A stretch of 53,057 nucleotides of DNA from Paracoccaceae bacterium (GTDB lineage: Bacteria; Pseudomonadota; Alphaproteobacteria; Rhodobacterales; Rhodobacteraceae). The translations under genes were made by a program, and so were the position numbers. The notes beneath the pieces are model-generated. The model did not search any database. It was given only the letters and a program-made list of their open reading frames with translations, and was not told the DNA's origin. Shown here piece by piece: positions 10,123-53,057 of this stretch (position 1 is the stretch's first letter; the number at the start of each line of letters is the position of its first letter). Location of the stretch: contig JAPOOS010000315.1 of assembly GCA_026713305.1 (NCBI GenBank), positions 1 to 53,057 of the forward strand, read 5' to 3'.

Positions 10123-10431
10123 AATCCATCCACGTCCCCAGCGCTTCGTTGAATTTCCGGATGGGGCCGGGAAGTTCCCGGCAGGTGCACATGAGACAGG
10201 ATTGGGTTTCCCGAGCGGCTTTGGATGAAGTCGCGGCGTGTGCGAGATCCCTTCCGGCAACCAGGGCGGCTTCGGACCGGCATTCGAACAAACTCGAAAG
10301 GTCCATTGTTGCTGGCTTCAGGAGTTAGGCAGCGCCGTTCGACATCTGCTCTTCGGTCTTCTGCCGCCCCGATCCACTTTCGGGCGGACATCTCTGACCG
10401 TTCAAATGCCGAACGCCAGGCAGTGCGAAAG

Positions 10432-11961: not shown

Positions 11962-11997
11962 TTCAGGTACCCTCCCCTGTCGCGGTGCCAATGCCGT

Positions 11998-19663: not shown

Positions 19664-19752
19664 GAGATCGAAGTCCTGGATTCAATACCTTTGAAGAGAC
19701 ATGACAACCCTTTCAACTGGCGGCGCCACAGTTCCGACTTGCCAATAACGGG

Positions 19753-24608: not shown

Positions 24609-25679
24609 CTAACCCCACCCGATTGGTTCGCCCGACCGGCGCTGCCTTCCTATGCGCCGCCAACGGCGATTCCAAGTGTCAGCAAACCTCGTGACATCCG
24701 CCATTTTGGTAGATGGACCCAGCGACACGCGAATTGCGCAGTCCGAAACTCCGCCACGCACGCCCATGGCCCGCAGGACATTGCTTGGAGCAACCTTTCC
24801 CGACGAGCACGCGGACCCGGCTGAAACCGAGAAACCTCTCAAGTCCATATCTATTACTTGCGCCTCGCCTTTCCAACCTCTAGCGGCAAAACAACTCGTG
24901 TTTGGCAGCCGAACGGCTTCCTTGCCGAAGAAAACCACATCTTCGTGACACTCGACTATGACTGACTCCATTGCATCGCGGAGTTTTTCGACCTTCCGCC
25001 AAGTTCCGTTCTCAACCTCCGCCTGAGCAGCCACGGCAGCGGCCGCAAATCCGGCAATTCCGGCCACGTTCTCCGTTCCCGATCGTCGGCCGAATTCCTG
25101 TCCGCCTCCCTTGACCCTGTGTTGCAGTTCGACACCGGCAAAGTTGACCACGGCGCCGACTCCCTTTGGCCCGCCAATCTTGTGTGCGGAGACAAAAGCC
25201 ACGTCAACCTTGCGCGCAAGCTGCCGAACGTCGATCTTGCCGAACGCCTGGGTGGCATCGCATGCGGCGAGTCCCGCCGGCAGTCGCTGAACGACGCCGG
25301 TTTCGCTGTTGGCCAGCTGTACCGCCGAGCAACGGGGTTCGACGACCTGCACCGTTCCGCACTCGAGGACTGGAAGGTCGGGCTGCGTCCAGGCGCGCAC
25401 GCAATCATGCTCTATCTCGGAGGAATGCAGGTTCCGGCCTGCAAGCGCAAGCGACGCAGCCTCGGTGGCGCCGGAGGTGAAGGTAATGTTGGCAGGGTCA
25501 GTTTCAAAGACAGTTCCAAGCTGCAGCCTTGCCCGGTCGACAATGGCGCGGGCGGCTCGGCCTTCCCGATGAACCGATGAAGGATTGCCCCAGCAGGCAA
25601 GGGCTTCGATCATGGCGCTGCTGGCTTCCGGACGCAGTGGCGCCGACGCGTTCCAGTCCAGGTAGACGCGAGGTTGCAT
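24609..25679 (-). CDS. NifS/IscS-like cysteine desulfurase (group I, short form)
   Basis: 356 aa class V aminotransferase with PLP-Lys SAHKIGGPKGVGA and catalytic loop SAGSACSSG. Lies between the rrf2 regulator and sufB. Confidence 0.85.
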   Translation of the reverse strand: MQPRVYLDWNASAPLRPEASSAMIEALACWGNPSSVHREGRAARAIVDRARLQLGTVFETDPANITFTSGATEAASLALAGRNLHSSEIEHDCVRAWTQPDLPVLECGTVQVVEPRCSAVQLANSETGVVQRLPAGLAACDATQAFGKIDVRQLARKVDVAFVSAHKIGGPKGVGAVVNFAGVELQHRVKGGGQEFGRRSGTENVAGIAGFAAAAVAAQAEVENGTWRKVEKLRDAMESVIVECHEDVVFFGKEAVRLPNTSCFAARGWKGEAQVIDMDLRGFSVSAGSACSSGKVAPSNVLRAMGVRGGVSDCAIRVSLGPSTKMADVTRFADTWNRRWRRIGRQRRSGEPIGWG

Positions 25680-37313: not shown

Positions 37314-37680
37314 TCAACAGCTCGCACGCTCCATCAAAGCGGCCTGACTTCGAGAGGGTCCGGAAAGTCTGACCGCCGGCCCGCCGGCCCTGCTCCAACG
37401 CTTTCCCGCGAGCTTCATCCGCTGATTGATCAAAACGCGGTTCGCGGCATCCACCGCGCCCGACCTGATCAGCAGCTTCTCCTGACACAAGCTGTGGCGC
37501 TGCATCCGGTGGCGGTTCTTCATGAAGTAGCCGAGCGCCCTCTCGACCACTTCGTGTGCCTTCGCATTCCTCAGCTCCTTCGTTCGCATGTGCCCGAGCT
37601 CCGGCGAACCCTAAAAGGCATCGAAGGCCACAACCGGCATGCCGTCGTCGATCAGCTTGCACAGTTTGGCTAAGCTAGTG
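37314..37680 (-). pseudogene. ISKra4-like transposase C-terminal remnant with in-frame stop
   Basis: The minus-strand reading ...AKLCKLIDDGMPVVAFDAF*GSPELGHMRTKEL...ALGYFMKNRHRMQ...IRSGAVDAANRVLINQRMKLAGKRWSRAGG matches the ISKra4-type C-terminal pattern (YL.KN..RM.Y...IGSGAVE.A.K.V.NQRL...GMRW). A TAG interrupts the frame at 37611-37613 and no upstream catalytic part is present. Confidence 0.5.
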
Positions 37681-37960
37681 TTTCGTGGCTGAAAGCATCA
37701 TAGTGATGGACATCGGGAGCACTACTTTCGCTGGAAGATTGGCACCGGAGCCGACAGGAACAGTCGCATCTTGATTTGCTCCCGACACAACCCCCAAGCG
37801 GCGCTCTGTGACAGTGATTCTTGGATGTGCGCGAACTGTCACCGGATGACGAAAATCACCCCAAATCAGGGGGTTGAAACTGGCCGAATCAGTCAGGACG
37901 GCGTCCAGGGGGCAAACCGCGTCCAGCTAGATAGAACGCATCCCTATCTTAGGATAATTC

Positions 37961-37988
37961 TTGACAATTGACACAATGGCTCTATATA
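37961..37988 (+). promoter_or_regulatory. Near-consensus sigma70-type promoter (TTGACA-16 nt-TATATA)
   Basis: ttgaca at 37961-37966, a 16-nt spacer, and tatata at 37983-37988, in an AT-rich patch of an otherwise GC-rich intergenic scar. It points toward the 3' end of the convergent giant gene. No credible downstream CDS. Confidence 0.3.
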
Positions 37989-38366
37989 CAATGGTCGAAG
38001 CGGGCAGGCGCCGGAGCAACTCCGAGTTGGCCCAGACGCTGGCAGCATCCATTGCGATGTGTCCTAGGAGCCGGGGGCCCGCTAAACCCCAACATTGGCG
38101 CAAGAAGTTCAATTGATTTCGGTCCGGGCTCGCGGCGTGAAGCCGCGGGACAATTTAGGGCAAAAATTGGCTCCATTGCCGCTTTTGTCCATGAGCAGAC
38201 CATTTGCCTGCCTGTGTTGAATTGGCATGCATCGCAACTGACAAAGATTGAGACGAAAGTCACAGATCTCGAGTTCCAGGGCCAAGGTCGGATTATTGTG
38301 CCAAACTGCAGGTCCCAAAAGTGCGCATTCGTCGGCTGGTCCAAGTCCGCAGTGTCCCTTGGAAGC

Positions 38367-41300
38367 TCACCGCCTTATGTCATTCCAGTGGTCAATCGCA
38401 GCTTTGGCCAACTTCTCGATCTGTTCTGTTTCCGCAAATGGGACCTGGAGCACGAAGTAGTCCTGTCCGGGCGGGGTGCTTTCGTTGGCCAAGTCAACTG
38501 CGAGATGGCCGCGGCCCAAGAGCTTCTCGCCACCTCCACAGCCCAAGACCATCCTGGAACTCGTGCTGTTCTGAACTCTGAGGCAAAGCTTGTTGCCCAT
38601 GTTGTCCCGCAACCGGGATGGAACCGCTTCTGCGTCAGCTCGCTGCGTTATCAGCACCAGATGTATGCCGGCTGCGCGCGCCTTCATGCCCAAATTGGCG
38701 ACTGCCGACAAGACCACATCCTTGTACTTCTTCTCCTGCGCCATCCAAGATCCCAGTTCATCGTGAACGAGGAAGATGCGTGGTAGGCACTCGTCGCCAT
38801 CCAATGATTTGTTGTACTCATCGATGTTGGGCTTTTGACGCTTGGCAAGCAACCGGTAGCGCCGGTCCATTTCTTCCACCATTGCCTCGAACGCATTCTG
38901 CGCCGCTTCTATGTCCGAAATGATGTCGCCTTTCAGCTGCGGCGCACCCTTGATCCAACCATAGTCCACCCCCATTTTGGGGTCCACCAAGACAAGTTTA
39001 ACCTTGGCGGGATCGTTGAATGCGATAAGCTGAAGCAGCAAGCCCTGGGCAAGAACACCCTTGCCGCTTCCAGTTTGACCAGCGATCAATGTATGAGGTC
39101 CGTGCTCCTCCAACCCTGAAAACTTTCCGCCAAGATTCAGGTACAACAAGCCGTCCTTGTCTTCGCGTGCTCCGAGTATGAAGCTTGTCCATTCACCGGG
39201 TGAGGTGTCTGGCCAAGAGGCATTCAGCCACGTCGTGGCAAGCGAAACCTTTGCTCGCTGCTCGCGTTCAATGAACAAATAGACGGTTCCGATGCCAGGC
39301 CGAACATCAACGACCGATATTCCGTGAGTGGTCAAGAGTTCCCCGCGACGCCTCTCCACCTTGTCGACTGTCAGCGTGTCATGCCCCTTGAACGCAAGAA
39401 GGACGCCGTTGTGTGTGAGTCTGTATTTCTGGTCCGCAAAGCGAGCTTCCATTCCGTAGTTGCTCAGAGCGCGTTGCGTGCGGGTGCATATTTCCTCTGC
39501 CCATTGTCTTGATTTTTCGTCGTCGATGGAGCCTTTGTCGTCCTTTGCAATTTCCTCGAGCACGGTGAGCAGCGGCTTTGGTATAAACTTCGGACCTTCA
39601 ATGCCGTTTGGATCCACTTTGCCGTTGCCATTGGGTGGTAGGTCGGGTGGCAGTTCAATTGGATCTGTTATCGGAGCATTCCCCTCACCGACATGCCAGT
39701 CAATCTTGCGATACTCCACGGCAGGCATCGTAGACGGGTCGACCAATGCCGAAATGTACCTGCTGACCAACGAACTGGGCAATTCCGCACTTCCCAGGTA
39801 GGCTTTCGAGCTGTCGCCCTCCTGTTTGAGGCTGCGTCCATGCTCGTCATGCAGGCAAACAACCGCCTCGCCACAGATCTCAAAGTCGATGTCGCCAGTG
39901 TGAAGCCGTTCAAGGAGGTCGCCTCGCCTCTTCGCATCTCGCAGGTGGGCGGTCAACTTGCCCTGATGCGACAACAGTTCCGCAAGCCTCCTGCACCAGG
40001 CCACACGGGAAATTGGATCCCTGTTGTCGACAAGAACACTTTTGATATGCTCCACAGTGTCCTCAATCTGCTTCCGGGCATCGTTGCATTCAGCCACACG
40101 GCTGGCCGTCGAAACATACTTCGCTTCACCTATCGCGAGCAGCAGTCTGCAAGTCCCTCCGTTGCTGTCCGCGACAACTCCAATCGCATCGGCGATCCTG
40201 CCCGTTCCGGAGGTGAACCACGTTCGATAGTCATCAAGCGAAATCCAGATGGGATCCACATCTCGCCCAAGGCTTGCCGAAATCATGCCTGTCAGATGGG
40301 CACGCATAACGCTCAGGCCGATCATCTCCTGTGTGGAGTTCATGTGGCGGGCGGCCGACAGAATTCGCTGTCCCGAAATCCGGACAACATCCCGCCACAC
40401 TGCCTTCGCAAGTTGCTTGACCGAATCTTGATCGATGCCCTTGAGCTTTTGCAATTCGCTTCGGAAGCTTGATGTAAGCAGTTCACTGCTGTCGGATGAG
40501 ACCAACATGCGCCTGTCGTCGCCAGGTTGAGACTTCTCGCGAACAATCTGTACGTCACAGTGTTCGAGCAACTGCCGACTGGGAATCAAGTCGAAGGTAA
40601 CAACCCAACTTGCCAATCTGTGTGCGCGTCTAATGAGTTCTCCAGCCTTGGGATCATCAAAGTCAGCCCTGCGAATCAATGCGCTGCGACTCCCGTTCGC
40701 AATGTTCACCTCCTCGCACTGGACGTAGAGGAGATCCTGAAAGTCGGCTACCGGTCGAGGTGGCGTTGGAAGAGTCAGGTAGATCTCGGTGCAAACTGGG
40801 TTCAAGTCGGTTAGGCGCAGTCGCGGTCTGGCGGCGCCTTCAGGATCGAATGACTCAGCAATGGGCTGCGCGCCCTCGTCCTCCTGTATCCATTTTGGCT
40901 GGGCTCCTTTGCTGATGACATCAAGCAGAAGGATCAAGTCCAGCGACCTAACGTCATCGTCCGATACTTCGGTTGCGGATGCTGTCGGTCTTACGTCAAC
41001 CCGCAATCTGGAGAGAAAGCTCTTGGCCGTGTCGCTGATGTTTTCGCTTTCCAGAAGCAAGTTTTGTTCCTGGTAGATGGCTTGAAGCCGGTCGCGGTCT
41101 TGGTGGGAAATCACCAGATCGCATCGCATGGAATTGTCTTCACGAATGCGCTTTGCCATCAGGATCGAAAGCTCGCGGGGAAGAGTTAGGCTTTCCAGAT
41201 TGTAAATTGCCGTCGATAGGTTTGCCCTCTCGTGGGGATGGGTATCCAGGTAGTCGCCAATTGCGCCATTGAAATTCTCGGCCGCGGTCTTGGCGATTAC

Positions 41301-43733
41301 TTCCAGCGCCTCCTTGCTGCTGGCGGCGTTCCTGGCAGGAACCAGCAAACTGTATCCTCCCTCGCTCTCAATCGAGATCAAAAGTTCGCCGTCGACCACC
41401 GCAACTTCCGGGAATACCCAGCGTCCCAGCTGCTTGTTCCGCTGTTCGAACGCAATGGAAATGTCGGCATCCCTGTCGGAAGCCTGTTTCAGTACGCTTT
41501 CCACAAATCGCGCCAGGCTTCGAATCTTTGCCTTCCTCTCCGCCAGACGGAATGGGTGCCATGCGGCAACGACGGCCAATGTGGCCGAACCGTCGGAAGG
41601 CACAATTCCGATGTTTGCCGCCAATGGCCATAGTTCCTTGCCTGCCCTGCGCGAAGTCGCTTCGGTTCGGCAGTCACGGCACAGCTGCCCGAACGCCTGG
41701 GCCTGCTCATCAACCAGGCTACCTGAAAATCCTCTTCCGGGATCATCGTAAATTTCCCTTAGAGCGCGCCTGAAGCAGTCATCAAAGCGATCGACGGCCC
41801 TTCTGATCCGCTCAGCGCCGCCAGCGGTGATGTCACCCATCTCTTGGAGTTCGATCAGCTTCTTTCGCAGCGTTTGGGAAATATTCTCGTTGGGATGCAC
41901 GGCGCGGCCGAAAGTTCGCCCATCCTGAGATCCAAACACGTCACTGAACGTGTTGGTTTCTCCAAGGGTAAAGCGCACCAAACTGGATTCCACCGCTTCC
42001 GGCAACGGTGAAATCGCCTGCCAGCGGAACACGCCGGCGCTTTCGCTCTTGGATGCCTCTGCGAGGTCATGCATGTCTTCCGGGAATGCAAGGCTGATCG
42101 ACTTGAGCTTGGGCTTGAGGCCGGGCTGCCAGACCGCCACAATTCTTGGTGCGTCGCGAGGCGCTCTGCCATCAAGGGTTCGACACTCAAACTCGGATGC
42201 TTCAATGAGATACATCTCAAGTTCGACTCTGCGCCTGTATGCAACGGAGGAGGCGTTCGCGGCACGACTCTTGAGGCAGGCATCAATGTCCCACTTGACG
42301 CTTTTCCCGAACTGGTTGCGCAGAATCCTGTATTCGAACTGAAACAAGGCTTGCACACGCCTGTCCAGGTCCTCCCAGAACAACGCCTTGTTGTGTTGCG
42401 CCGCCCGAACAAGAACACATGGATCGGTCATGCCCGCAACGGAATCCGACGCCTCGACCAGCAGAGCCTCAAATCCCCTTTCAAACACAGTCAAGAGATC
42501 GTGCCCAAGGATTCCCTTGGAATACAGACGTTTGTGCCAATGCTTGAAAAGAGTTGCTCGGCTTGCAAGCGCCAGTCTGTCTCGCCACTTGTCGAAGAAT
42601 TCCAGTTCCTCGCGCTTTGGATGGCTAGGTCGGGAAACCGGGAGTGAATCCAGCAAGACCAACTCTTCAGGAGTTACTTCATCCCGATAGTTTCCTTCAA
42701 TGAACTCGCGTGTTCTTTCACCCAATTGCCCGTAGCCAGTCTTTCGGGACGAGGAAAAGATGTGCTTGCCCACAGACTCCCATGACACACGCTCACAGAA
42801 GTCAATCTGACTTTGGCGCCATTGCCCGTCCTCAAGATTGGGATCATCTTCAAGCAAACGCTCCACCGCGCTTTCAGCCTCCTCGGGCAACAGGCCAATT
42901 GTGTTGTTGCGCAGCCTATCCATGTTCGACCGCACCGACTCGATGTCAACTGGTTCCTGATTGGGCTTGAGCAGGCTGGCGTAACCGCTGATCTTGTCCC
43001 GCGCATGCTCGAACGCCCGTTGGAAATCCTTCGTCTCTTGGAGTCGTCCTAGCAACTGGAAGGACGGCAGCTTTTCGAATCCATCGACGGGTATCTTAAG
43101 TGCGGGCGCTGCCTTCTGCACTCGAAGGTAGACTGGCAGCGCGTACCCCTGCTCCTTGATTGCAAGCACGAAATTGATCCACGACTCAAGATCCTTGTAG
43201 ACTTGCGATTCTCTCAAGCCCTTCAACACTCTAAACAAATATTCCCTTGGCCGTTGCTCCTCCCCAAGCACCTTCACCCAATCGTCTGTTCGGCGGACAA
43301 TTGTGTCTTCGTCAATTCTTGTGAGCGGTCTCAATCCTGCGCCAATGTTTTCCGGCTCATCGGCCGAAGGTGCGAACACGATTACGTCGGCAGCAGCGCT
43401 GTGCCGCCAGTGAATGGCCGACTTGTCCGACTGAAGGTGGCGGTCAACGCCAAGGCCGGTCGCTGCATCGGGATGAAGCTTCAGAAGAATGCTGCGCCAC
43501 TTGATGCTGGCAAGCCTCTTCCTGGCGATGCCTTCCAAATATTTCGCCTCGAGTCCGGCAAGCATGAACGTAACACGTTCCCCCGGAATGGCGTCCAGCA
43601 CCTCGTCATAGACATGGTTCCACACAACTTCGCCAACCAGATCTCCCTTCAGGCGACAGTTGGAGCAAAGAGCATCCTGGACATCAGAACCGGATGGGTT
43701 GTCGCAGAACTTGCAGGAAAGAATTCTATTCAT
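38367..43733 (-). CDS. dptH: Giant (about 1,788 aa) DndH/DptH-like (SspH-position) restriction component with N-terminal Cys4 ribbon and C-terminal FtsK/SpoIIIE-type DNA-translocase ATPase
   Basis: N-terminus has CKFC-x12-CSNC. The C-terminal 244 aa carry Walker A AGQTGSGKG, VLVDPK, Walker B IFLVHDELG, HLVLITQRAD and SRMVLG...LLGRGH, in the order typical of FtsK/SpoIIIE. It is the last gene of the operon. Start is taken at ATG 43733 (MNRILSCKFC), an 8-nt overlap with the upstream stop. Size and position match DptH of DndFGH. Confidence 0.6.
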   Translation of the reverse strand: MNRILSCKFCDNPSGSDVQDALCSNCRLKGDLVGEVVWNHVYDEVLDAIPGERVTFMLAGLEAKYLEGIARKRLASIKWRSILLKLHPDAATGLGVDRHLQSDKSAIHWRHSAAADVIVFAPSADEPENIGAGLRPLTRIDEDTIVRRTDDWVKVLGEEQRPREYLFRVLKGLRESQVYKDLESWINFVLAIKEQGYALPVYLRVQKAAPALKIPVDGFEKLPSFQLLGRLQETKDFQRAFEHARDKISGYASLLKPNQEPVDIESVRSNMDRLRNNTIGLLPEEAESAVERLLEDDPNLEDGQWRQSQIDFCERVSWESVGKHIFSSSRKTGYGQLGERTREFIEGNYRDEVTPEELVLLDSLPVSRPSHPKREELEFFDKWRDRLALASRATLFKHWHKRLYSKGILGHDLLTVFERGFEALLVEASDSVAGMTDPCVLVRAAQHNKALFWEDLDRRVQALFQFEYRILRNQFGKSVKWDIDACLKSRAANASSVAYRRRVELEMYLIEASEFECRTLDGRAPRDAPRIVAVWQPGLKPKLKSISLAFPEDMHDLAEASKSESAGVFRWQAISPLPEAVESSLVRFTLGETNTFSDVFGSQDGRTFGRAVHPNENISQTLRKKLIELQEMGDITAGGAERIRRAVDRFDDCFRRALREIYDDPGRGFSGSLVDEQAQAFGQLCRDCRTEATSRRAGKELWPLAANIGIVPSDGSATLAVVAAWHPFRLAERKAKIRSLARFVESVLKQASDRDADISIAFEQRNKQLGRWVFPEVAVVDGELLISIESEGGYSLLVPARNAASSKEALEVIAKTAAENFNGAIGDYLDTHPHERANLSTAIYNLESLTLPRELSILMAKRIREDNSMRCDLVISHQDRDRLQAIYQEQNLLLESENISDTAKSFLSRLRVDVRPTASATEVSDDDVRSLDLILLLDVISKGAQPKWIQEDEGAQPIAESFDPEGAARPRLRLTDLNPVCTEIYLTLPTPPRPVADFQDLLYVQCEEVNIANGSRSALIRRADFDDPKAGELIRRAHRLASWVVTFDLIPSRQLLEHCDVQIVREKSQPGDDRRMLVSSDSSELLTSSFRSELQKLKGIDQDSVKQLAKAVWRDVVRISGQRILSAARHMNSTQEMIGLSVMRAHLTGMISASLGRDVDPIWISLDDYRTWFTSGTGRIADAIGVVADSNGGTCRLLLAIGEAKYVSTASRVAECNDARKQIEDTVEHIKSVLVDNRDPISRVAWCRRLAELLSHQGKLTAHLRDAKRRGDLLERLHTGDIDFEICGEAVVCLHDEHGRSLKQEGDSSKAYLGSAELPSSLVSRYISALVDPSTMPAVEYRKIDWHVGEGNAPITDPIELPPDLPPNGNGKVDPNGIEGPKFIPKPLLTVLEEIAKDDKGSIDDEKSRQWAEEICTRTQRALSNYGMEARFADQKYRLTHNGVLLAFKGHDTLTVDKVERRRGELLTTHGISVVDVRPGIGTVYLFIEREQRAKVSLATTWLNASWPDTSPGEWTSFILGAREDKDGLLYLNLGGKFSGLEEHGPHTLIAGQTGSGKGVLAQGLLLQLIAFNDPAKVKLVLVDPKMGVDYGWIKGAPQLKGDIISDIEAAQNAFEAMVEEMDRRYRLLAKRQKPNIDEYNKSLDGDECLPRIFLVHDELGSWMAQEKKYKDVVLSAVANLGMKARAAGIHLVLITQRADAEAVPSRLRDNMGNKLCLRVQNSTSSRMVLGCGGGEKLLGRGHLAVDLANESTPPGQDYFVLQVPFAETEQIEKLAKAAIDHWNDIRR

Positions 43734-45306
43734 GTTGGGCACTGGTGTATGGGTTTGAAATGAAGGCACAGTCGTCCGAAAGACGGCGTGTAAGCGAGAG
43801 TCTAGACATGCGTTCCTCAAGCGCCGCTAGGTTGGTTTCGAACCGCTTGATGTTGATTGGGAGCTGGTCGAACGCCTTGCGGGCTTCTGCAGGGCCAGCC
43901 ACAATTCCATACCGCTTATATAGCCTTGCCACGAAATCCCGCAGTTCCATTGGGTGGACTCCCACGGTCATAACCAACGCGATTATGCCTTTGTCACTCA
44001 TTGCAAGCCATGTGCCGATTCCTGGCTTTGCAAGCACCAGGCCGGCATTCCTAGTTAGCGGGAGGAGAAAATTGGACATGTTGTTCCTTTTTCTCTCGGT
44101 CGCGATCTTGATGAGAGTTTCCAGCTGCGATTCCGGCGACCTGAGCGAATCTTCGTTCTTGAAGGCAAAGAGCCTTTCGAGAGCAAGGTTTGCTGATTTC
44201 GGGTGGCCCAGTTCAACGGCCGTTTTCCATTCCGCGCTGTCATTGGCGCGCCGCTTGACGAACTTTCTGACTGCAATTTGGGCTTTCTTCCTTTGTCGAT
44301 TGAAAATTGCCTTGGAACAATTGCGGACAAGCATGTCGGAGCCGTTGGCAAAATCCATGACTAGCGGCATTCCGTGCGATTCGCCGATGTTGTTTCCCTT
44401 GATGTGATCTTGAGTTAGCTGAGCCAGAAACACGGTCAAATTCAATGCCGTGATGCGGACAAGCGGCTCAAACTTGTGACTCTTGGGAAGTCGTTCGAGC
44501 CTTAGAATCGCTCGCCAATCTTGAGCAAGCTGCTCATAGGTTCGATGACGAATGTATGGCAGATATCCCATTTGTGTCTTGGAGTCGCTGTCTTCGAAGG
44601 GGTCGCTCAACGCCTTGGCCATGCGGTTCAACGGGTCGTCCCTGTTTAGAAAGCATCCATGGACCAACTCCCTAAGTTCGTCGGCAAGCGGGGAACGGTT
44701 CAGCATGAGGTAAACCAGTTCTCCCCCGCGTCCGAAGAAACGGCGATCCATTGACCAATTGCCGCCCTGTGCCCGCACGTCGGCACAGATCATGTCCGGA
44801 CCAGTTACAGCCAAAAATCTTGATGTCCATCTGCGCTTGTTCAGAGCGTCGAGTTCGACTGCCTGAAGCGTCCTGACATACTGTCGAAGCTGGCGAAGAG
44901 AGTTTTCAAACGGCTGGTTCAAATAGCGAAAGTGATCCACGATTCCACCATTCGGAGGAGGTTGCATGTTGACGCTGTCCTCCCATTGGATATTGACTCG
45001 TTCCTTCCAAATCCTCCATTTGTCGACATCGCGGATTTCGCTGTCCATCCAGACTTTCTCAAGATTGCGATCCTGGAACAACAGGAACCGCAGTTTGCGA
45101 CGATGCGGAATCCTGTATTGAAAGGCTTCATGCTCCATTTCGCTTGGTCGCACGGTGCCAAGCGGTTTGTCCGCCATGACCGCAAGCGCCTCAAGAACAA
45201 TCATGTAGGGTTCCTGATCGTTCACGAAGCGGTGGCCATACATGACCTCCTGGACCCGCATCTGAGTGCGGCCGATTGCCATTTCGGGGACTGGCAATGC
45301 ATTCAC
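43726..45306 (-). CDS. dptG: DndG/DptG-like (SspG-position) protein, no enzymatic motif recognised
   Basis: About 526-532 aa ORF between the P-loop (F-like) and giant (H-like) genes. A GTG at 45306-45304 overlaps the upstream TGA (GTGA), and an alternative ATG lies at 45324. Assignment is by position and size only. Confidence 0.4.
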   Translation of the reverse strand: MNALPVPEMAIGRTQMRVQEVMYGHRFVNDQEPYMIVLEALAVMADKPLGTVRPSEMEHEAFQYRIPHRRKLRFLLFQDRNLEKVWMDSEIRDVDKWRIWKERVNIQWEDSVNMQPPPNGGIVDHFRYLNQPFENSLRQLRQYVRTLQAVELDALNKRRWTSRFLAVTGPDMICADVRAQGGNWSMDRRFFGRGGELVYLMLNRSPLADELRELVHGCFLNRDDPLNRMAKALSDPFEDSDSKTQMGYLPYIRHRTYEQLAQDWRAILRLERLPKSHKFEPLVRITALNLTVFLAQLTQDHIKGNNIGESHGMPLVMDFANGSDMLVRNCSKAIFNRQRKKAQIAVRKFVKRRANDSAEWKTAVELGHPKSANLALERLFAFKNEDSLRSPESQLETLIKIATERKRNNMSNFLLPLTRNAGLVLAKPGIGTWLAMSDKGIIALVMTVGVHPMELRDFVARLYKRYGIVAGPAEARKAFDQLPINIKRFETNLAALEERMSRLSLTRRLSDDCAFISNPYTSAQHE

Positions 45307-47078
45307 GATTCCTCCTCCTCGCATTCCACTAGTTCGATTGGGCGATCGGTCAGTTCCCCCTCATTCAGTTCTGCAATTCGAATTGACTGGACAGCCGCCG
45401 GAGGGAGTTTTGCGCGCAAGGCAGCGCTGGCTTGAAGTTGGAAACGTGTGATTGCCTGCAGACACTCCGATGAAAAGCTTGCCGGCAGCGCTCCCTCGGC
45501 AACCCGCAGGAGACATTCAACCATGGTCGGGTTCAAGCTCAGATCAACCGGACCTGGTTCAATCCTGAGAATGGGCGGCTTTCCCCCTGCCCCACCTGCA
45601 GCGAGCTTGAAGCTGGGAGGGAAGTGGCTGTCGAGCTTGGCGACGAGCAGCGGCAGACCCTGGCCGCGGAAGACGCCGGACGGTTCCGTAAGCCACAGGC
45701 GGTCATTCGTCTTTGTCAATTGTCCGGTCATCATCCGATTCAGCCCCCGCATGAGCGGTCTGCGGATTCTCGCAGGTAAACTTCGGTTGCGTTCCAGCGT
45801 GTCTGTCAGCTGAATGTATGTTGCACCGTGCCTGAAGCGTGTCAGATTCCAAGGTGAGGCAAAGGGGCGATTGGTGTCGACTTCAGGTTCAATCGAAAAG
45901 AACAGGCGGCGACGCTGGTCCACCATCTTGTCCCGAAAGCTTGGTCCGAACGTGCTTGTGTCTTCTCGGTATTGCTTGCGCGCGCCTCGAAAGAGCCTGT
46001 CGCCGAAAGTGGAGCATCGCGGCAATGTGGGGTCGTTTCGCAACAGGTTTTCGTCGAAGTGGTTGTTGGTTTCGGAACCAACGCCGAACTGTCCGAGCAC
46101 TTCGAACACCCAGTACTGCTGCCGCTGGGTCTGGCCAAGATTTGTGCCAAACACATTTGAGTAGGGATTGGAGCTCTCGAAGTCCTTGACCTTCGCGCGC
46201 CATTGGGCGGTGCTGCAATTCAGGAGCCTGCCACGATACTTGCGATCTCCAAGCAGAATGTTGACCATGAGCAGTATGATCTGTCTGATTGAAATGTGGC
46301 GGCCGTCCGCCGCAGCCATGCTGACCATGTCCTTGAGTCGGGCGCGCATCGTCGCTTCGCCCTTCATGGTCATGACATCCAGGTTGCGGAGTATGGGGCA
46401 TCGGTGTTCGTCCTGGGAATTGGCCGGGCAGCCAGCGCATTTCCGCCAATCCGGATGATCCTCGAATTCTTCGAGGATACGATCAACCACTTCGAGATGT
46501 GCTTGGTGGGACATGTTTATCAGCTGGAAGCCGCCTTTCGCATCCTCGCGGCAACCCGTCTGGAGAAGTTGGGAGATTCGAAGCCCCAGCCCCTCGTCCC
46601 TGTCCTGTCGGTCACGAAAGAACTTGAGCAGATGCCCGTCGTTCACGCAGATTAGATAGACATCGTTGGAACGTCCCAGAAGCGAGTCCCTGATGGCCTC
46701 AAAATGCTCGTCCTTGTCCCTTTCGTTGAATTCGCTCAAGTCCTTGATGAACCACAGCTTGCCGCCTGCATCTCCCGGCAGGTCAAGGGAATGCCGCTGG
46801 TCGGTGTTGCTCCACCCCTTGTCCTTGCTGCCCGACATTGCCTCCAGGAGCTTTCTGGCCGTGTAGGTCTTGCCGTCGCCTGCCGTGCCGGTAAGTATCA
46901 CGGAGACCGGTTTGGTCTCAAAAAGCGCCTTCAACTCTCCAATGAGCGGCTGGTGAATTTCCAGCTGTTGGCACCCGGTCCGACGGGCGGTATCAACCAC
47001 GAATTCGTCGTAGAGGCTGTTTGACGAAGCTTGCGGCCCGTACGAGGCCAGGAATTCAACGATTGGGTTCTTGATCAC
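45303..47078 (-). CDS. dptF: DndF/DptF-like (SspF-position) P-loop NTPase
   Basis: 591 aa with a GTG start. Walker A ILTGTAGDGKTYTARKL, Walker B-like VYLICVNDGHL, and cysteine cluster CAGCPANSQDEHRCPILRN. It is the first gene of the F-G-H-like trio. Confidence 0.5.
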   Translation of the reverse strand: MIKNPIVEFLASYGPQASSNSLYDEFVVDTARRTGCQQLEIHQPLIGELKALFETKPVSVILTGTAGDGKTYTARKLLEAMSGSKDKGWSNTDQRHSLDLPGDAGGKLWFIKDLSEFNERDKDEHFEAIRDSLLGRSNDVYLICVNDGHLLKFFRDRQDRDEGLGLRISQLLQTGCREDAKGGFQLINMSHQAHLEVVDRILEEFEDHPDWRKCAGCPANSQDEHRCPILRNLDVMTMKGEATMRARLKDMVSMAAADGRHISIRQIILLMVNILLGDRKYRGRLLNCSTAQWRAKVKDFESSNPYSNVFGTNLGQTQRQQYWVFEVLGQFGVGSETNNHFDENLLRNDPTLPRCSTFGDRLFRGARKQYREDTSTFGPSFRDKMVDQRRRLFFSIEPEVDTNRPFASPWNLTRFRHGATYIQLTDTLERNRSLPARIRRPLMRGLNRMMTGQLTKTNDRLWLTEPSGVFRGQGLPLLVAKLDSHFPPSFKLAAGGAGGKPPILRIEPGPVDLSLNPTMVECLLRVAEGALPASFSSECLQAITRFQLQASAALRAKLPPAAVQSIRIAELNEGELTDRPIELVECEEEES

Positions 47079-47088
47079 GGTTGTTGTC

Positions 47089-47946
47089 TCACAGATGGCA
47101 GATGGCGCAACCGCGAAGCGGCTCGCCTGATGTTCCAGGACGGCGTTCCTTGATCGCCTCGAGTTCCTCGAGCGTTCTCGTTTGTGTCCACGTAAACCGT
47201 CGGCCGTTCGGCTTGGGCTTTTCGTATTCCTTGGCGGCTTCGAAAAGTTCGGGATGACGTTCCTTCAAACCTTGCCATTCCCCGACCCGCTGGAAGAAGC
47301 AGAAGTAGCAGCCGGAGCGTGATCGCCATTCGTAGTAGGACGGCAGCCCCAGCCCGCTTGCCGTCAGGATGTCACGAACGTCGTCAAGCTCGAATCCCTT
47401 GTCCTTGAGCGGGTAGACCGGGAGGATGTTTTCGTTGTGCGAAATGACCACTGGCTTGGCGCCCTTGGCATCCGTGCCCGTCTTCTTGCTCGTGCTGCCA
47501 AGGAAGCCCTGGCGGTCCTCGTCGGCTCTGATCCCGATGTAGGAATAGGCCAGATCATCGCCCACGAAATGCTCGAACGGCTTGATCTTGAGCATGCGTG
47601 TGCACCATCTGGCCTGCGGGTTGGGCAGAAATCCCGAGTAGACCTCGTTCAGGATCACATCGAAGGGAGACCGGCGACCGTCCTTTGAGCGCACATTGAG
47701 TTCCGGAAGACCAAGCGCCGTGAGGCGCGTGACCTCAACGCCAAAAATTGCCTCAAATCGCTTGAGATAGGCATAGGTCTCCGGCAGCTCGGCGCCTGTG
47801 TCGGTGAATACGAACTCAAGCGGCAGGTCTCGATGGTTGTCGAGCATGTAAACGGCAAGCGCAGTGGAATCCTTGCCGCCGCTCAATGGTACGATGTGTC
47901 GCCTCGACTGGTCCTGAATCGCGTCTTGGAGTTTGGTGGGCGTCAT
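47089..47946 (-). CDS. sspD: PAPS-reductase-family PP-loop ATP pyrophosphatase, SspD/DndC-like
   Basis: PP-loop VPLSGGKDSTALAVYM, WCTRMLKIKP block, and C-terminal cysteines CYFCFF and GCAIC. ATG 47946 overlaps the upstream TGA (ATGA). Confidence 0.7.
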   Translation of the reverse strand: MTPTKLQDAIQDQSRRHIVPLSGGKDSTALAVYMLDNHRDLPLEFVFTDTGAELPETYAYLKRFEAIFGVEVTRLTALGLPELNVRSKDGRRSPFDVILNEVYSGFLPNPQARWCTRMLKIKPFEHFVGDDLAYSYIGIRADEDRQGFLGSTSKKTGTDAKGAKPVVISHNENILPVYPLKDKGFELDDVRDILTASGLGLPSYYEWRSRSGCYFCFFQRVGEWQGLKERHPELFEAAKEYEKPKPNGRRFTWTQTRTLEELEAIKERRPGTSGEPLRGCAICHL

Positions 47947-50900
47947 GGTTTCATTTCCTGAAATTCCTGCAGGCACCTGCCAACCGCGTCGCGGCCAACC
48001 TTGTGGCTTAGTTGAACGAGAAGGTTTGAAAGGTAGTGTTCGACGAATCTTTTGGATTCCATGCTGGAGTCGGCACGTTCAAGCACCCTTGCCTCAAGGC
48101 GCATTGCGGTTGCCTCAAGACGCTCCCGGAACAAACTGACAGTCCGCTCGTTCCATTCTTCAAGTCCCTTGCCCAGGAGCACGGTGCTCAACACGTCCGA
48201 CAATCCGCGCTCGCCGCGGGAAGAGGACTGGGCATTCCGTGCATGGGACAGAATGCCCTGAGCCTCGCGATCAAGACCAATCCGCATGTTTTCCGGCTGC
48301 GGGAGGAATGCCGCCCAAGTCTCTGCAGCCTGCAGCAATGGCAGCGGCCTGCCAGGAATGCGCGAGTTGAACACTTCGGCCGCAATCGCAGCAGCCCGAT
48401 GTGCGTAGGAGTCAATCACCGAATTCAGCTGGTCGATTGCCAGGCAAAAGACCCTGACGAATTGTGCCGAAAGCGCTTCCTGGTCGATCGCCTCGGGCAG
48501 CTTGCGCAAAATCAAGTCAAGAGGATCCATCATTGGGTCGCGAAGTAGAGGCTGTACCTGCTCGGCAGCCTTGCCCAGTCCGGTTGCATGAAGTGCGGCC
48601 CGCGGAACCGCGTTCCTCCACGAAAGCAGCGCGTCGTACAGCCCACGAACTGGGTCGGGTTCCTGCGGGTCCACCTTGCCGGCAAGATGGCCGATCATCG
48701 TCTCGAGATTCTGAATCTGGCGATCCGTAAACGGATATGTCTCAAGTTCGAATTGGGTCGGGTTTTCGCAGATTCGTTCAATCAGGGATGGCTGTATGTC
48801 ATCAACGTACAGGCGATCGCCCTTGACGACTTCCCGGATGGCAATGCCGCGTCCGAACGCTTGGAGCCCGGCAGCGACAAGGAGAGGGATCAAGCCCTGC
48901 CGAACTCCAAATGGAGGGGCGGAGAGAACGTCGACGATTTGGGTGAAGCTTCGGCGAGTTGCCTTATTGGGGGCAAAAAAGAGAGCGATTTTTTTCCAGA
49001 CGCGACGAGTGCCGGGATCCTTTACTTCCTGGCGGCGGGCCCAACGGAATGAAAGTCGACTACCCCCCCCCCTCCTATAAATTCCGCTTTGCTCGAAAAC
49101 GGTTCGGAAAATGGAGGAATCGGCCGAGGTCGCGCCTTCGTAGCCCAGCGAATTGGCGCCGCTCCGCTCAATGACCGCAAGCATGCAGCGCCTGCGCGCT
49201 GATCGGGCAGTTGGCGTCAAGTGCCGGCGCACGACCTGCTCGTTTCGTATGACTGGCGCATGCGGATAGCGGTTCTCGAAAATGTCGGCCAAGACCTCCC
49301 CGACATCTGCACGGCCATCGAATTCGTGGCTGTGGCCGTCATGCAGCCAGGTAACCTTTCCCAAGTCCGTGTTCATCAGATGCTCAAGCGAACTCCGCAA
49401 AAGGATTTCCGTTTCGGCCTTCAGCTCAATGAGTTCACGGCTGATCAGGGGATCGCTTTCGACAAGTTCGGGAGTTTCGAGCAGGTTCTTGACTGCAAGT
49501 AGTTCCGCCACGTGATGCGAAATGTCGGCTTGGCGGTGCGGCAACGCGACTACCACGTGTGGTGGGAGTTCACGTGCAGCGACATGCAGCTTTCGGCAGT
49601 CATTCGAGGCATCTATGACCAGTGCCACCAGCGCATCCTCATTCTCAGCTGCCCTGACCAATGCCTTCCGGCCGTCGACGCTCAGGATCTCCTTGGACCG
49701 CACAAATCGGCCGCGGGCAAAGCGGGTGATGGCGTGTTCGTGATTGTAGCGGGGAGCGATGTAGTTCTCGGGCGGAAACAGATCTTCGAGCGATTCGATG
49801 ACATCGTGGCGTCCGAGCAACCGCCTTACTTCCTCATCGACCAGCTGTCGCAAGTCCAGATCGGAACCGTGCCACAAGGAAATGTCGTCAACCCGCTTGC
49901 GATGAAGCAGCACCTTTCGTTCCACAAGCCTGTCGATCTCGGCTTCGGCATCGTCGGCCGTCAAGGATGTTCCGGCAGAAACTGCAACAACAAGACGCCC
50001 GCGCGTCAGATTGCGGCGTTCGCCACTGCGACCCATCTGCAGGAGTGCAGCTGCCTTCACAATCTTTCTTTGCAGGGCAGTTTCTGTCCTGGAAATAGCG
50101 GATTCCGCTTCGACATAGCGCCTGAAGGATCCACCGCTTCCTGAATCTGCGCGCATGGCTGGAACGAAGTAGTCGTATAGTCTGTCAAGCCCCACCGAAC
50201 CGTTCCGGACTCCCTTTGACAAACCCTCTTCAAGAAACCGGAATATGGTGCGTTCGTTCTGTGCAACCTGGGCAGCCATTCTCGGAAGAGTTTCGAGCGC
50301 TGCGGGAGTGAGGGGCCTGGATCGCGCCAGCACATGTTCAAGTTTCGAAAGGTCGGCGTATTCGGGAAAGAATCCCTGTGATCTTGCGTCGCGTGCAACC
50401 GAACCGCACACATGCCCGCCCTTGCAATTCAGCGTTTCGGCGATCGCTTCGTAGGCATCGGTGCCATCGTCGGTCAACCTCACCACGGAAAACCGTCCCT
50501 CGATCTTTCTCCAAGACCTGCGGGCCGACTCAGAAGCCCGGCGGGCATATTGATTCAAGCCCGAATGCATGAGCGTGGTGAAGGTCACCAAGGGCTTCTC
50601 GCGGCGGACCGCCCATTCCGCGAGGTCCTGGACCGCAAGCAGTTCCTCTTCGCGCCCGGCGACCGCAAGGTCCTCAAGGTGCTTTCCGAATTCATCCCAG
50701 ACGATTATCAGGCGTTCGACATTGGACTGGCACAGCTTTCGGTGCAACGCCTCCAGCGCTTCCTTCGTGCCGCGGTGAGGATCAGTTCCTGCCTGTTTGC
50801 ATAGCGCCAGCGGCAGGCTCGCGCAGGCGCCGTGAAGAACAATCGCTTGCGTCCTGCCTGAAATGCCGAAAAGCGCCTCAGCCAGCTTCGAGTCTGCCTC

Positions 50901-51140
50901 TGCAATCTTGCGAAGCAACTGGTTGGCGCAGCGGTTTCTCTCACGGAGAACCGTGATCGCGACCAACGCCGCCATTGACTTGCCGGCGCCAAAGGGCGCT
51001 ATCACGTGGCTCGCGCGGTCTCCGTTCAATCCGCTGACGGTCGACACGACCTGCATGGCCTTTCGGGTAACTTGAAAGCCCTCGGTTCTTTCCGGTCTGC
51101 CGAGGTCTTCCGCTATGTTGACGGAATGGAAGCCGGTCAC
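47943..51140 (-). CDS. sspC: Large P-loop ATPase, SspC-like / BrxC(DUF499)-like
   Basis: Walker A APFGAGKSMAAL and Walker B RLIIVWDEFGKHLE, then LAVQDLAEWA. About 900 aa of mostly helical sequence carries no other recognised motif. A GTG at 51140 overlaps the upstream TGA (GTGA), and the longest ORF starts at ATG 51194. Confidence 0.5.
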   Translation of the reverse strand: MTGFHSVNIAEDLGRPERTEGFQVTRKAMQVVSTVSGLNGDRASHVIAPFGAGKSMAALVAITVLRERNRCANQLLRKIAEADSKLAEALFGISGRTQAIVLHGACASLPLALCKQAGTDPHRGTKEALEALHRKLCQSNVERLIIVWDEFGKHLEDLAVAGREEELLAVQDLAEWAVRREKPLVTFTTLMHSGLNQYARRASESARRSWRKIEGRFSVVRLTDDGTDAYEAIAETLNCKGGHVCGSVARDARSQGFFPEYADLSKLEHVLARSRPLTPAALETLPRMAAQVAQNERTIFRFLEEGLSKGVRNGSVGLDRLYDYFVPAMRADSGSGGSFRRYVEAESAISRTETALQRKIVKAAALLQMGRSGERRNLTRGRLVVAVSAGTSLTADDAEAEIDRLVERKVLLHRKRVDDISLWHGSDLDLRQLVDEEVRRLLGRHDVIESLEDLFPPENYIAPRYNHEHAITRFARGRFVRSKEILSVDGRKALVRAAENEDALVALVIDASNDCRKLHVAARELPPHVVVALPHRQADISHHVAELLAVKNLLETPELVESDPLISRELIELKAETEILLRSSLEHLMNTDLGKVTWLHDGHSHEFDGRADVGEVLADIFENRYPHAPVIRNEQVVRRHLTPTARSARRRCMLAVIERSGANSLGYEGATSADSSIFRTVFEQSGIYRRGGGSRLSFRWARRQEVKDPGTRRVWKKIALFFAPNKATRRSFTQIVDVLSAPPFGVRQGLIPLLVAAGLQAFGRGIAIREVVKGDRLYVDDIQPSLIERICENPTQFELETYPFTDRQIQNLETMIGHLAGKVDPQEPDPVRGLYDALLSWRNAVPRAALHATGLGKAAEQVQPLLRDPMMDPLDLILRKLPEAIDQEALSAQFVRVFCLAIDQLNSVIDSYAHRAAAIAAEVFNSRIPGRPLPLLQAAETWAAFLPQPENMRIGLDREAQGILSHARNAQSSSRGERGLSDVLSTVLLGKGLEEWNERTVSLFRERLEATAMRLEARVLERADSSMESKRFVEHYLSNLLVQLSHKVGRDAVGRCLQEFQEMKP
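49063..49072 (-). repeat. G10 homopolymer (C10 on + strand) inside the SspC-like coding sequence
   Basis: The + strand reads ta-cccccccccc-tcc. The minus-strand codons agg agg ggg ggg ggt encode RRGGG and are currently in frame. Confidence 0.95.
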
Positions 51141-52051
51141 GCTGCGGGCTTTCCTGCGCGCTCCATTATCCGGGAATAAAGGCGACCTGCCCATCTGGCA
51201 GGCTGTGCGCTGCGGACCGAAATTTGGGTTGCGCCGGCAAGGCGTCGGGCGCCCATGTGTTCCTTGCCAATCTGCTGAGAGCCGTCCGTGGCTATTTCCA
51301 GCAGTTCGAGTTTGCCCTTCCCAAGCATGCCGCCGGTCAGCGCCATCTCGCTGCCCGACAGTTGCACGTCGATCTCGACATCCTCGTCGAGCAGGTGCGG
51401 AGGTTTGGCGGCTGTAACTGCAGAAATGACAAGTCCCAGAATTTCCGGTGGCAAAGGGGTCGATGTGGTGCGTTCGTATCTGTCCACTGTACGGAAATGG
51501 CGGATGAGGTTCAACCGATGCAATGGACTTCCAAGATTGTCCTCTGGGTCGTTCGACGCTCGGGGCACCGGCACCGCATAGGCTTTCAGGACCGTGGCCA
51601 CCTCGCGCTGGATCCTGGGGAGCGAAAACTCCTTTCCGGATTTCATGCGGGCACTTTTGTGGAGTTCCTCAATCAGGTCTGCTCGACTGAACCGGGAGGG
51701 CAGGTGGTGGGAGAAGAACCAGGGAAGTGACGATCCAGTTCCCGCCGTCACCGCGCTCGCATGAACCAGCCACCAGGTCCCGAGCAAACCCATGAATGGA
51801 TCGTGCTGTGCAATTGTCTTTCCCAACTCCGACAGTTCCAGCGGCTTCGACTGGTTGGCACGCTCGGCGAGCCCGGTCATGCGGAGCCACCAACCAATTG
51901 ATCTTGCCATGTTTCGCCCTACCCCCAAGGCATCTGCAACCTCCACCCGGGAAAAGCTGCCGGGTCGATTGCTCTGCAGGAAAAGCAGCCCCTTGGCGAG
52001 CCAGCCCGGGCGCGGGTAGAAGGTTTCGTGACCGCCGAGAAGCATACTCAT
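51137..52051 (-). CDS. sspB: DUF4007-like protein, SspB-like (first gene of operon)
   Basis: 304 aa. N-terminal GGHETFYPRPGWLAKG and wHTH-like ALGVGRNMARSIGWWLRMTGL match my recollection of the DUF4007 signature (GHETF.LR.GWL.K; LGVGKNMV.S.R.W). The size is typical, and it lies adjacent to the ATPase and PAPS-reductase genes. Confidence 0.6.
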   Translation of the reverse strand: MSMLLGGHETFYPRPGWLAKGLLFLQSNRPGSFSRVEVADALGVGRNMARSIGWWLRMTGLAERANQSKPLELSELGKTIAQHDPFMGLLGTWWLVHASAVTAGTGSSLPWFFSHHLPSRFSRADLIEELHKSARMKSGKEFSLPRIQREVATVLKAYAVPVPRASNDPEDNLGSPLHRLNLIRHFRTVDRYERTTSTPLPPEILGLVISAVTAAKPPHLLDEDVEIDVQLSGSEMALTGGMLGKGKLELLEIATDGSQQIGKEHMGARRLAGATQISVRSAQPARWAGRLYSRIMERAGKPAA

Positions 52052-52077
52052 GCCGAAGCGCCCTTTTCCCGATTCCT

Positions 52078-52091
52078 GGCGGAATTCCGCC
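52078..52091. promoter_or_regulatory. Perfect 14-bp palindrome GGCGGAATTCCGCC 27 nt upstream of the operon's first ATG
   Basis: The sequence ggcggaattccgcc is self-complementary. It lies in the 188-bp leader/promoter region between the IS630 remnant and the DUF4007-like gene. Confidence 0.25.
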
Positions 52092-52239
52092 CCATCACGG
52101 AATCAACAAGCGCCGCGAGCGCAAAAGGGGTTTGGGTTTCGGGGCGCAATTGGTCTCGGTCCAGTCTTTTGGAGAATGATATCACGTCATTGCCGGTGAA
52201 GATCACAAGGACCGTTCACACGACCAGCCAATTGCGCTA

Positions 52240-52866
52240 ATGCGCCAACAAACGCAAGTACGCAATCAGGCACGTCGCGTGCGTGCACTGTCGATGGGCT
52301 TTCGCTGGACAGCGGCGCGTCCTGTGCATCCGAAGTCGAGTGCGGCGAAAAAGCGTGAGTTTCGAGAGACCTATGCCCAAAGAGTTGCCAAGGAACTGCC
52401 TCCCCACGCCACCAATCTGACGCTGGAGACTTGGTTCCAGGACGAGACGCGTCACGGACAGATTGGCACGCTTGAGCGCATCTGGGGGGGGAAGGGAAAG
52501 AGAACCCGCGTCGTGCGTGACTTTCGCTTTATTTGCAGGTGGCTGTTTGGCTCCGCCTGCGCCAGCAGTGGCAAGGCCGTGGCCGCTGGCTGCCATGGCG
52601 TCTTGGTTCTTGACAGCGTGAGCTGGCATAGGTCGAAGGGGCTTGTCGTGCCCAACAACCTGACGCCGGACCACTTGCCGCCCTACAGTCCCGAGCTCAA
52701 TTCGATGGAGCAGGTGTGGGATTGGATCAAGTCCAATTTCCTGCGCAACCGTGTGCACAGAACGGCTGCCGAAGTGCAAACGGCGATGACGCAGGCGTGG
52801 CGGAAGTTTGCCAACGACCCGGACCGGACAGCTTCGATCGTGACGCGGGAATGGACCAAGGCATGA
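52240..52866 (+). pseudogene. IS630-family (DDE) transposase remnant lacking the N-terminal HTH and with an internal deletion
   Basis: WFQDETRHGQ (first D), VLVLDSVSWHRSKGL (second D), LPPYSPELNSMEQVW (E) in IS630 order. It is only 208 aa against about 340 aa expected, and about 25 aa are missing between the first and second catalytic blocks. Confidence 0.7.
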
Positions 52867-52918
52867 TCGCCCGAACCGCGCGATTTGCCGTCAATGATTG
52901 AAAGATCGCTTTGGAACA

Positions 52919-53057
52919 AAAGGGGATCACCGTCCCGACCTGGGTTTGCTGGAGCATGACTTCAGCCAGCCAGATCCTGTAGACCCTGTCGCTTTCGGAG
53001 AGCACGTGAGAGTTGTCATGCATTCGCCACGGCAGAGTTCGGGCGTTGCAGTCGTAC
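52919..53057 (-). pseudogene. mutY: A/G-specific adenine glycosylase MutY, 5' fragment (continues upstream of window; homology stops near 52919)
   Basis: The minus-strand reading YDCNARTLPWR...YRIWLAEVMLQQTQVGTVIPF matches the MutY N-terminus (R.LPWR...PY.VWLSE.MLQQTQV.TVIPYF). After ...VIPF the frame reads CSKAIFQSLTANR, unrelated to MutY, and runs into the IS630 remnant. Confidence 0.7.

Follow-up and report, generated by a model that had tools for sequence, protein, structure and literature searches.

Wang et al. 2021, mBio (PMC8092258) described in Vibrio anguillarum FF-93 a three-gene operon, sspFGH, that adjoins the DNA phosphorothioate (PT) modification genes iscS-sspBCD. They found sspF, sspG and sspH to be cotranscribed, and noted a Walker A motif in SspF and, as the only recognized feature of SspH, an FtsK-like C-terminus. 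SspFGH together with IscS-SspBCD protected E. coli against T1, T4, JMPW2 and EEP, and SspFGH alone was toxic, with TUNEL-positive DNA damage, when the FF-93 genes were placed in E. coli. According to the same work SspFGH has no significant sequence identity to DndFGH, the cysteine desulfurase SspA can be adjacent to the cluster, elsewhere in the genome or replaced by IscS, and sspFGH occurs in 196 of 2,678 sspBCD clusters, most often in Rhizobiales, with other Proteobacteria also prominent in the published distribution. Of the sspBCD clusters 84% lacked a known restriction partner, and non-defence roles of PT have been proposed. The PT motif in the Ssp systems studied is 5'-CpsCA-3'. SspE, the partner of SspABCD in the systems of Xiong et al. 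2020 (cited in PMC8092258), is activated by PT, whereas SspFGH attacks DNA without PT. A paper of 2026 still calls the mechanism of SspFGH poorly understood. Here we have analyzed a stretch of 53,057 nucleotides (nt), the window from here on, that constitutes contig JAPOOS010000315.1 of the Paracoccaceae assembly GCA_026713305.1. It carries a six-gene operon that is very probably an intact chromosomal sspBCD-sspFGH system, i.e. a PT-based, restriction-modification-like defence whose activities are assigned here by homology.

The operon occupies 13.7 kb of the minus strand (38367-52051) and consists of six consecutive open reading frames (ORFs) in the order sspB-sspC-sspD-sspF-sspG-sspH (Table 1). 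The junctions are GTGA between sspB and sspC (51137-51140), ATGA between sspC and sspD (47943-47946), a gap of 10 nt between sspD and sspF (47079-47088), GTGA between sspF and sspG (45303-45306) and an 8-nt overlap, ATGAATAG, between sspG and sspH (43726-43733). A sequence-only reading of this DNA had listed the six ORFs with their sizes and junctions, and every one of them turned out to be exact, as were the thirteen peptide motifs that it quoted. The coupled start codons, on which the sizes in Table 1 are based, agree with the start points of homologues in tblastn and with purine-rich Shine-Dalgarno-like sequences, the clearest being GAGGAGGAGGAATC / GAGGAGGAGG ahead of the GTG of sspG. The sspC start (GTG) aligns to residue 1 of its homologue in the Paracoccaceae metagenome-assembled genome (MAG) OY282431.1, the nearest relative of the locus, in which the same 4-nt and 8-nt overlaps are found.

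All six proteins match the corresponding PADLOC Ssp models almost end to end, with E-values from 1e-55 to 0, which rules out chance as an explanation. These six matches and the collinear gene order identify the operon as the sspBCD-sspFGH system of Wang et al. 2021. The sequence-only reading had already assigned the cluster to this reported class, and its proposal of an Ssp-type PT writer made of a DUF4007 protein, a large ATPase and a PAPS-reductase-like protein is borne out by the PADLOC assignments SspB, SspC and SspD. SspB was detected by the Pfam DUF4007 model (6.7e-41) and over its full length by PADLOC (1.7e-55), matched the SspB crystal structure PDB 6juf (9.5e-12) and carries the motifs GHETFYPRPGWL and LGVGRNMARSIGWW. 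In SspC (PADLOC SspC 1.1e-126; BrxC 7.1e-35) both the Walker A APFGAGKS and the Walker B IIVWDEF are intact. SspD was matched by Pfam PAPS_reduct (4.8e-07) and PADLOC SspD (3.8e-87), with weak matches of about 1e-6 to DndC in NCBIfam and PADLOC, and has the PP-loop PLSGGKDS followed by the cysteine motifs CYFCFF and GCAIC. Its cysteine-rich C-terminal part (residues 171-239) also matched PDB chain 21fy_C, 'PptA' (E 1.2e-06), a name that is absent from the one PT paper searched for it. All three components of the SspBCD modification module are therefore represented by their own models.

The three co-oriented genes that follow code for homologues of SspF, SspG and SspH and adjoin sspBCD as in the described module, with the Walker A in SspF and the FtsK/SpoIIIE C-terminus in SspH. 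PADLOC SspF (3.3e-136) aligns residues 7-555 with model positions 1-567 of 600, and the protein shows the Walker A GTAGDGKT and a cluster with CAGCP and HRCP; it gave no match in Pfam, NCBIfam or PDB sequences. SspG was assigned by PADLOC (2.1e-121), and its residues 456-519 matched NCBIfam MAD7 (1.2e-06). For SspH the PADLOC model gave E=0 and 1129 bits, and its C-terminal motor was found by Pfam FtsK_SpoIIIE (2.8e-26) and PDB FtsK (3.3e-28), with the Walker A GQTGSGKG, the Walker B LVHDELG and ITQRAD. The three Pfam families that had been suggested as a check (DUF4007, PAPS_reduct and FtsK_SpoIIIE) were all recovered, as were the six PADLOC assignments.

Table 1. Coordinates of the operon, of elements within SspH and of associated features in the window (conserved, conserved alignment columns retained)
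Feature	Position	Strand	Longest ORF	Conserved	Description or evidence
sspB	51137..52051	-	51137-52051	11/11	304 aa (amino acids); DUF4007 protein; predicted DNA-nicking component of PT writer
sspC	47943..51140	-	47943-51194	36/36	1065 aa from GTG at 51140; P-loop ATPase related to BrxC/PglY
sspD	47089..47946	-	47089-47976	63/64	285 aa; PP-loop ATP pyrophosphatase, PAPS-reductase family, C-terminal cysteines
sspF	45303..47078	-	45303-47078 (591 aa)	40/40	591 aa; P-loop NTPase with Cys/His cluster
sspG	43726..45306	-	43726-45324	38/39	526 aa; without known domain; C-terminus resembles MADS protein MAD7
sspH	38367..43733	-	38367-43820	91/94	1788 aa; putative large effector subunit
SspH FtsK/SpoIIIE-type DNA translocase ATPase domain (C-terminal)	38640..39101	-			Pfam, PDB, motifs
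SspH putative PD-(D/E)xK nuclease module (residues 1085-1300)	39834..40481	-			conserved residues and AlphaFold2 model
Module residue D1182	40188-40190	-
Module residue E1203	40125-40127	-
Module residue K1205	40119-40121	-
Module residue Q1222	40068-40070	-
Housekeeping NifS/IscS-type cysteine desulfurase, SUF operon	24609..25679	-			PADLOC SspA 3.7e-70, NCBIfam
SufS, second housekeeping desulfurase, SUF operon	17853-19073
N-terminally truncated IS630-family transposase	52240..52866	+			Pfam DDE_3 5.8e-15, partial HTH_33 only
Broken mutY (N-terminal ~47 aligned residues of MutY adenine glycosylase)	52918-53056	-			E 7e-08 to PDB MutY/MUTYH
DUF3800-VII RNA motif (Rfam RF02967)	37999-38088	+			full length, 54 bits (gathering score 36.2), E 2.7e-08

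To estimate the integrity of the system each protein was aligned to 33-41 homologues, and the columns conserved in at least 95% of the others were inspected. Overall 279 of 284 such columns are retained, the five departures being two I/V exchanges, one Q to R, one A to G and one P to H. No frameshift interrupts the 13.7 kb, and all the Walker, PP-loop and cysteine motifs are intact. With nearly all conserved residues in place the system looks functional. Besides, an intact restriction arm argues for a working writer, because SspFGH is toxic without PT.

Scanning a genome collection with the SspG alignment we found 42 loci, mostly in Paracoccaceae/Rhodobacteraceae, Hyphomicrobiales, Sphingomonadales and Halomonadaceae, together with a distant clade in Desulfobacterota, Verrucomicrobiota and others; the same scan with the SspF protein as single query returned no loci. 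The order B-C-D-F-G-H appears in about 35 of the 42 and is kept wherever the flanks are complete, and likewise on a Falsirhodobacter plasmid. SspG had 133 word-sharing homologues (the best 54% identical), a segment of SspH had 195 representatives at 50% clustering, and SspF homologues were located on 37 plasmids. The closest locus, that of OY282431.1, has identities of 64% for SspB, 56/50% for SspC, 78% for SspD, 57% for SspF, 54% for SspG and 53% for SspH, the last over 1805 aa. Its sspC (locus 4141-7328) is broken into ORFs of 743 and 284 aa, which is due either to its being a pseudogene or to an error in the assembly of long reads. Fragments of the ssp locus of the window were detected in two European Nucleotide Archive metagenome assemblies (ERZ27241795 and ERZ27241798). 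The RecA of the host is at best 76-79% identical to sequences of named Paracoccaceae/Rhodobacteraceae MAGs, which makes the host an uncultured alphaproteobacterium with no close relative among sequenced genomes.

These data do not fit the suggestion of a divergent or variant lineage made in the sequence-only reading, since the PADLOC models cover the proteins nearly end to end and the same lineage is present in dozens of genomes of Alphaproteobacteria and other groups. The observation behind it, that most of the roughly 4,500 aa have no recognizable motif, is correct for general libraries but reflects a gap in annotation and not the divergence of this copy, because Pfam and NCBIfam have no models for the family as a whole. 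NCBIfam has no model for SspB, SspC or SspF; SspD and SspG were matched weakly and in part, and the C-terminus of SspH by FtsK-type models. When Pfam was scanned at relaxed settings with SspC, SspF, SspG and the N-terminal 1300 aa of SspH, generic P-loop hints emerged for SspF only. In RefSeq the homologous plasmid genes are labeled 'DUF4007 family protein', 'hypothetical protein', 'ATP-binding protein' and 'FtsK/SpoIIIE domain-containing protein'.

Upstream of its FtsK motor SspH contains a stretch ('...WISLDD...RIADAIGVV...LLLAIGEAKYV...ARKQIEDT...') carrying D1167, D1182, E1203, K1205 and Q1222. All five positions are strictly or almost strictly conserved in every homologue examined, down to about 23% overall identity; for D1182, E1203, K1205 and Q1222 this covers 28-34 homologues, and the D...ExK...Q residues show no variation in 33 of these proteins. 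They contain the D...(D/E)xK catalytic signature of the PD-(D/E)xK superfamily. An AlphaFold2 model of the module built from a 30-sequence alignment had a pLDDT (predicted local distance difference test) of 90.9 and a pTM (predicted template modelling score) of 0.88; from the single sequence the pLDDT was 45. The modelled order is three helices followed by strand-helix-strand-strand-helix...strand, with D1182 at the start of strand 2 and ExK within strand 3, and in this prediction the order and the placement of the residues correspond to the arrangement of PD-(D/E)xK nucleases (alpha-beta-beta-beta-alpha-beta). In Foldseek the top match was Hachiman HamA (E=0.019, TM 0.32), then FokI, with BamHI and viral cap-snatching endonucleases lower, none of them significant. 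The module gave no Pfam match with 28 members scanned and no PDB match with a hidden Markov model (HMM) profile, and a word-indexed homologue search gave 2 matches. On the basis of the invariant residues and the confident model, the module is probably a PD-(D/E)xK nuclease placed upstream of the motor; given the lack of a significant Foldseek match, SspH as a translocating nuclease is likely but unproven. A broader proposal, that in all SspFGH systems the DNA is damaged by SspH, rather than by SspF or SspG, through this undescribed PD-(D/E)xK-like module fused upstream of an FtsK motor, stands in our opinion at even chances. A search of the literature found no paper describing a nuclease domain in SspH.

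Several observations weigh against an intact and working system. No dedicated sspA adjoins sspB, an absence that the sequence-only reading did not remark on, and almost every relative with complete flanks has one in the cluster, overlapping the sspB start in the closest clade, divergent upstream in the second clade and after sspH in the distant clade. No sspA remnant was detected in 52052-53057 by sensitive tblastn. At the site of sspA in the closest relatives, 190 nt upstream of sspB, we found a truncated IS630 insertion sequence (IS), and the last 140 nt of the window are a mutY fragment that breaks off at it. The remainder of mutY was found on neither side of the operon. The consensus scan revealed no sigma-70-like promoter in the 190 nt before sspB, and the promoter and terminator scans gave counts equal to the shuffled-sequence level and so carry little information. 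With the truncated IS630, the broken mutY and no promoter-like site, expression is not assured. The NifS/IscS-type desulfurase of the SUF operon scored below every NCBIfam cut-off (NifS/IscS/DndA models) and matches its models in two pieces, lacking some 40 model positions (about 100-141). To this must be added that the SspH nuclease assignment has no significant fold or sequence match, and that PT modification, PT motif and restriction activity are for this copy deduced from homology. Since the contig ends just past IS630 and mutY, sspA may lie beyond or may be lost. If the genome had no mutY other than this fragment, a mutator phenotype of the host would be conceivable; another possibility is that the contig was joined in assembly at a repeated IS.

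The missing sspA, the truncated IS630 with the broken mutY beyond it and the lack of a promoter-like site could be expected if the cluster were a decaying or silent remnant in which the IS630 deleted sspA and the native promoter, leaving no expression or no PT. We consider this unlikely, given the six open frames with their conserved residues and motifs and the toxicity of an SspFGH arm deprived of PT (PMC8092258). The consensus scan is a weak test for Alphaproteobacteria. As to the sulfur donor, SspA is replaceable by IscS-type enzymes, and the window codes for such an enzyme 21 kb from the operon (SufS is at 28 kb). This enzyme is the best match in the window to the SspA of relatives (33% identity), although its PADLOC SspA score was 235 bits versus 344-417 bits for the operon-linked SspA of relatives. 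It is an atypical short form and adjoins an Rrf2 regulator. Considering the precedent of IscS and a cluster without sspA, it is probably the donor in trans. Even less room is left for a PT used mainly in non-defence (epigenetic or redox) functions, with genes 4-6 not acting as a restriction arm in this host. The large share of sspBCD clusters that lack a known partner, and the non-defence roles proposed for PT, speak for it, but this operon has an intact sspFGH that is coupled in translation to sspBCD, and another candidate defence locus of the window is in keeping with a genome rich in defence genes; we find it very improbable. As for genes 4-6 being true DndFGH/DptFGH members paired with an Ssp writer, the resemblance is architectural only: a P-loop protein, a mid-size protein and an ATPase of about 1,800 aa with translocase features. 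No match to TIGR03236, TIGR03237 or TIGR03238 (DptG/H/F) or to any Dnd/Dpt F/G/H family was obtained in NCBIfam or PADLOC at E<=0.01, while the SspF/G/H models gave 1e-121 to 0, and Wang et al. had reported the same lack of identity. This is the least credible of the alternatives, and as a claim of homology it is refuted by the absent family matches. The 'DndFGH-type' label of the sequence-only reading, which had named those three TIGRFAM models as a check, therefore holds as a functional analogy but not as family membership.

Taking the operon as an intact sspBCD-sspFGH system, a cysteine desulfurase would supply persulfide sulfur, most likely the housekeeping NifS/IscS-type enzyme, or else the product of an sspA located beyond the IS at the contig end. 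SspD as PP-loop ATP pyrophosphatase, SspC as P-loop ATPase and SspB as nickase would then put the sulfur on one backbone strand at short motifs. The restriction arm, made of the NTPase SspF with SspG and SspH, would damage unmarked DNA and in this way block phage replication, and should become toxic on loss of the writer. The overlapping stop and start codons may keep the toxic arm and the writer co-expressed. SspH would be the effector, a suggestion added here, its FtsK-type motor translocating and its D1182/E1203-x-K1205/Q1222 module cutting or nicking unmodified DNA.

The operon lies in a chromosomal housekeeping region, with alaS, recA, a MBL-fold gene and rlmE to its left and the SUF operon further on, and its G+C content is not distinct from that of the neighbouring SUF region. 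No integrase or flanking repeats delimit an island (the search for direct and inverted repeats gave only short matches at chance level), and no tRNA genes were found in the window. Between rlmE and sspH, the 1.9 kb at 36434-38366 hold no credible ORF. A six-frame Pfam search of this interval for an integrase, the missing part of mutY or any gene in decay gave no match, and the interval shows no similarity to plasmid DNA; as a decayed remnant it may mark the downstream edge of the island. This interval contains the DUF3800-VII RNA motif, about 280 nt beyond the sspH stop and pointing into sspH, with no DUF3800 gene following. As two relatives lack this RNA in their ssp loci, we rejected it as a component of the system and regard it as a bystander.

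An empty-site comparison using the recA neighbourhood of the relative with 78% RecA identity left the borders undefined, the two regions not being collinear beyond rlmE. In that relative (4437-13521) the rlmE-MBL-recA neighbourhood has a PIN/VapC toxin-antitoxin pair, transposases and a BglII-type restriction-modification pair, and this region may be a hot-spot at which defence genes integrate repeatedly. The second candidate defence locus of the window is found at 10432-14739 on the minus strand. It includes an AAA ATPase of 519 aa that matches PADLOC PDC-S27 (9.7e-34), a next ORF with a weak PDC-S27 match (5.7e-06) and a 230-aa ORF that is Shedu SduA-like in its first 65 residues only (2.9e-09). 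Near 12 kb the G+C content falls from some 62% to 55%.

In practical terms this is one more chromosomal sspBCD-sspFGH cassette in the group where such cassettes had already been reported to be commonest, detectable by standard defence finders, and the call made earlier from motifs only was accurate. The lack of Pfam and NCBIfam models for SspC, SspF, SspG and most of SspH leads to 'hypothetical' labels in RefSeq, and known systems can in this way look novel. The sole forward-looking element is the nuclease-like module, a property of the whole SspH family and not of this window alone, whose D...ExK...Q residues offer a mutable target to find out how SspFGH damages unmodified DNA.

Compared with other known systems, the similarity to MADS and BREX is at domain level only. 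The SspG C-terminus resembles MAD7 (1.2e-06), the SspH FtsK domain mad8 (4.6e-19) and SspC BrxC/PglY (7.1e-35), but the operon has neither a methyltransferase nor further genes of MADS or BREX at its side, and the full mad gene set is absent. With DndABCDE-DndFGH (DptFGH) the system shares the PT self tag and a three-protein arm toxic without the mark, including a P-loop subunit and a translocase-like giant subunit, and SspD is a distant relative of DndC. It differs in that genes 4-6 have no detectable homology to DndF/G/H, that there is no DndB, DndD or DndE, the writer genes scoring as SspB/C/D instead of a dndBCDE set, and that PT is placed on a single strand by Ssp but on both strands by Dnd. 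The SspABCD-SspE systems of Vibrio cyclitrophicus FF75 and E. coli 3234/A have the same SspBCD writer families; no SspE was seen when the six proteins of the operon and flanking ORFs were scanned.

The closest relatives are the Paracoccaceae/Rhodobacteraceae loci (MAG OY282431.1 and the Falsirhodobacter algicola plasmid NZ_CP047290.1), which have the same overlapping junctions, although there sspA overlaps the sspB start and in the window no such sspA exists. In about 9 of the 43 related loci (NZ_CP047290.1, locus 17859-19704, and loci L006, L009-L011, L019, L035 and L042 of our set) sspH is followed directly by a gene annotated as 'DNA phosphorothioation-associated putative methyltransferase', of which the window has no trace; some sspFGH clusters may use this gene as an accessory component. 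With respect to V. anguillarum FF-93, iscS is adjacent there whereas the cluster described here has no neighbouring desulfurase gene, and the host here is an uncultured alphaproteobacterium. The two share the six protein families, their order, the Walker A of SspF and the FtsK/SpoIIIE C-terminus of SspH.

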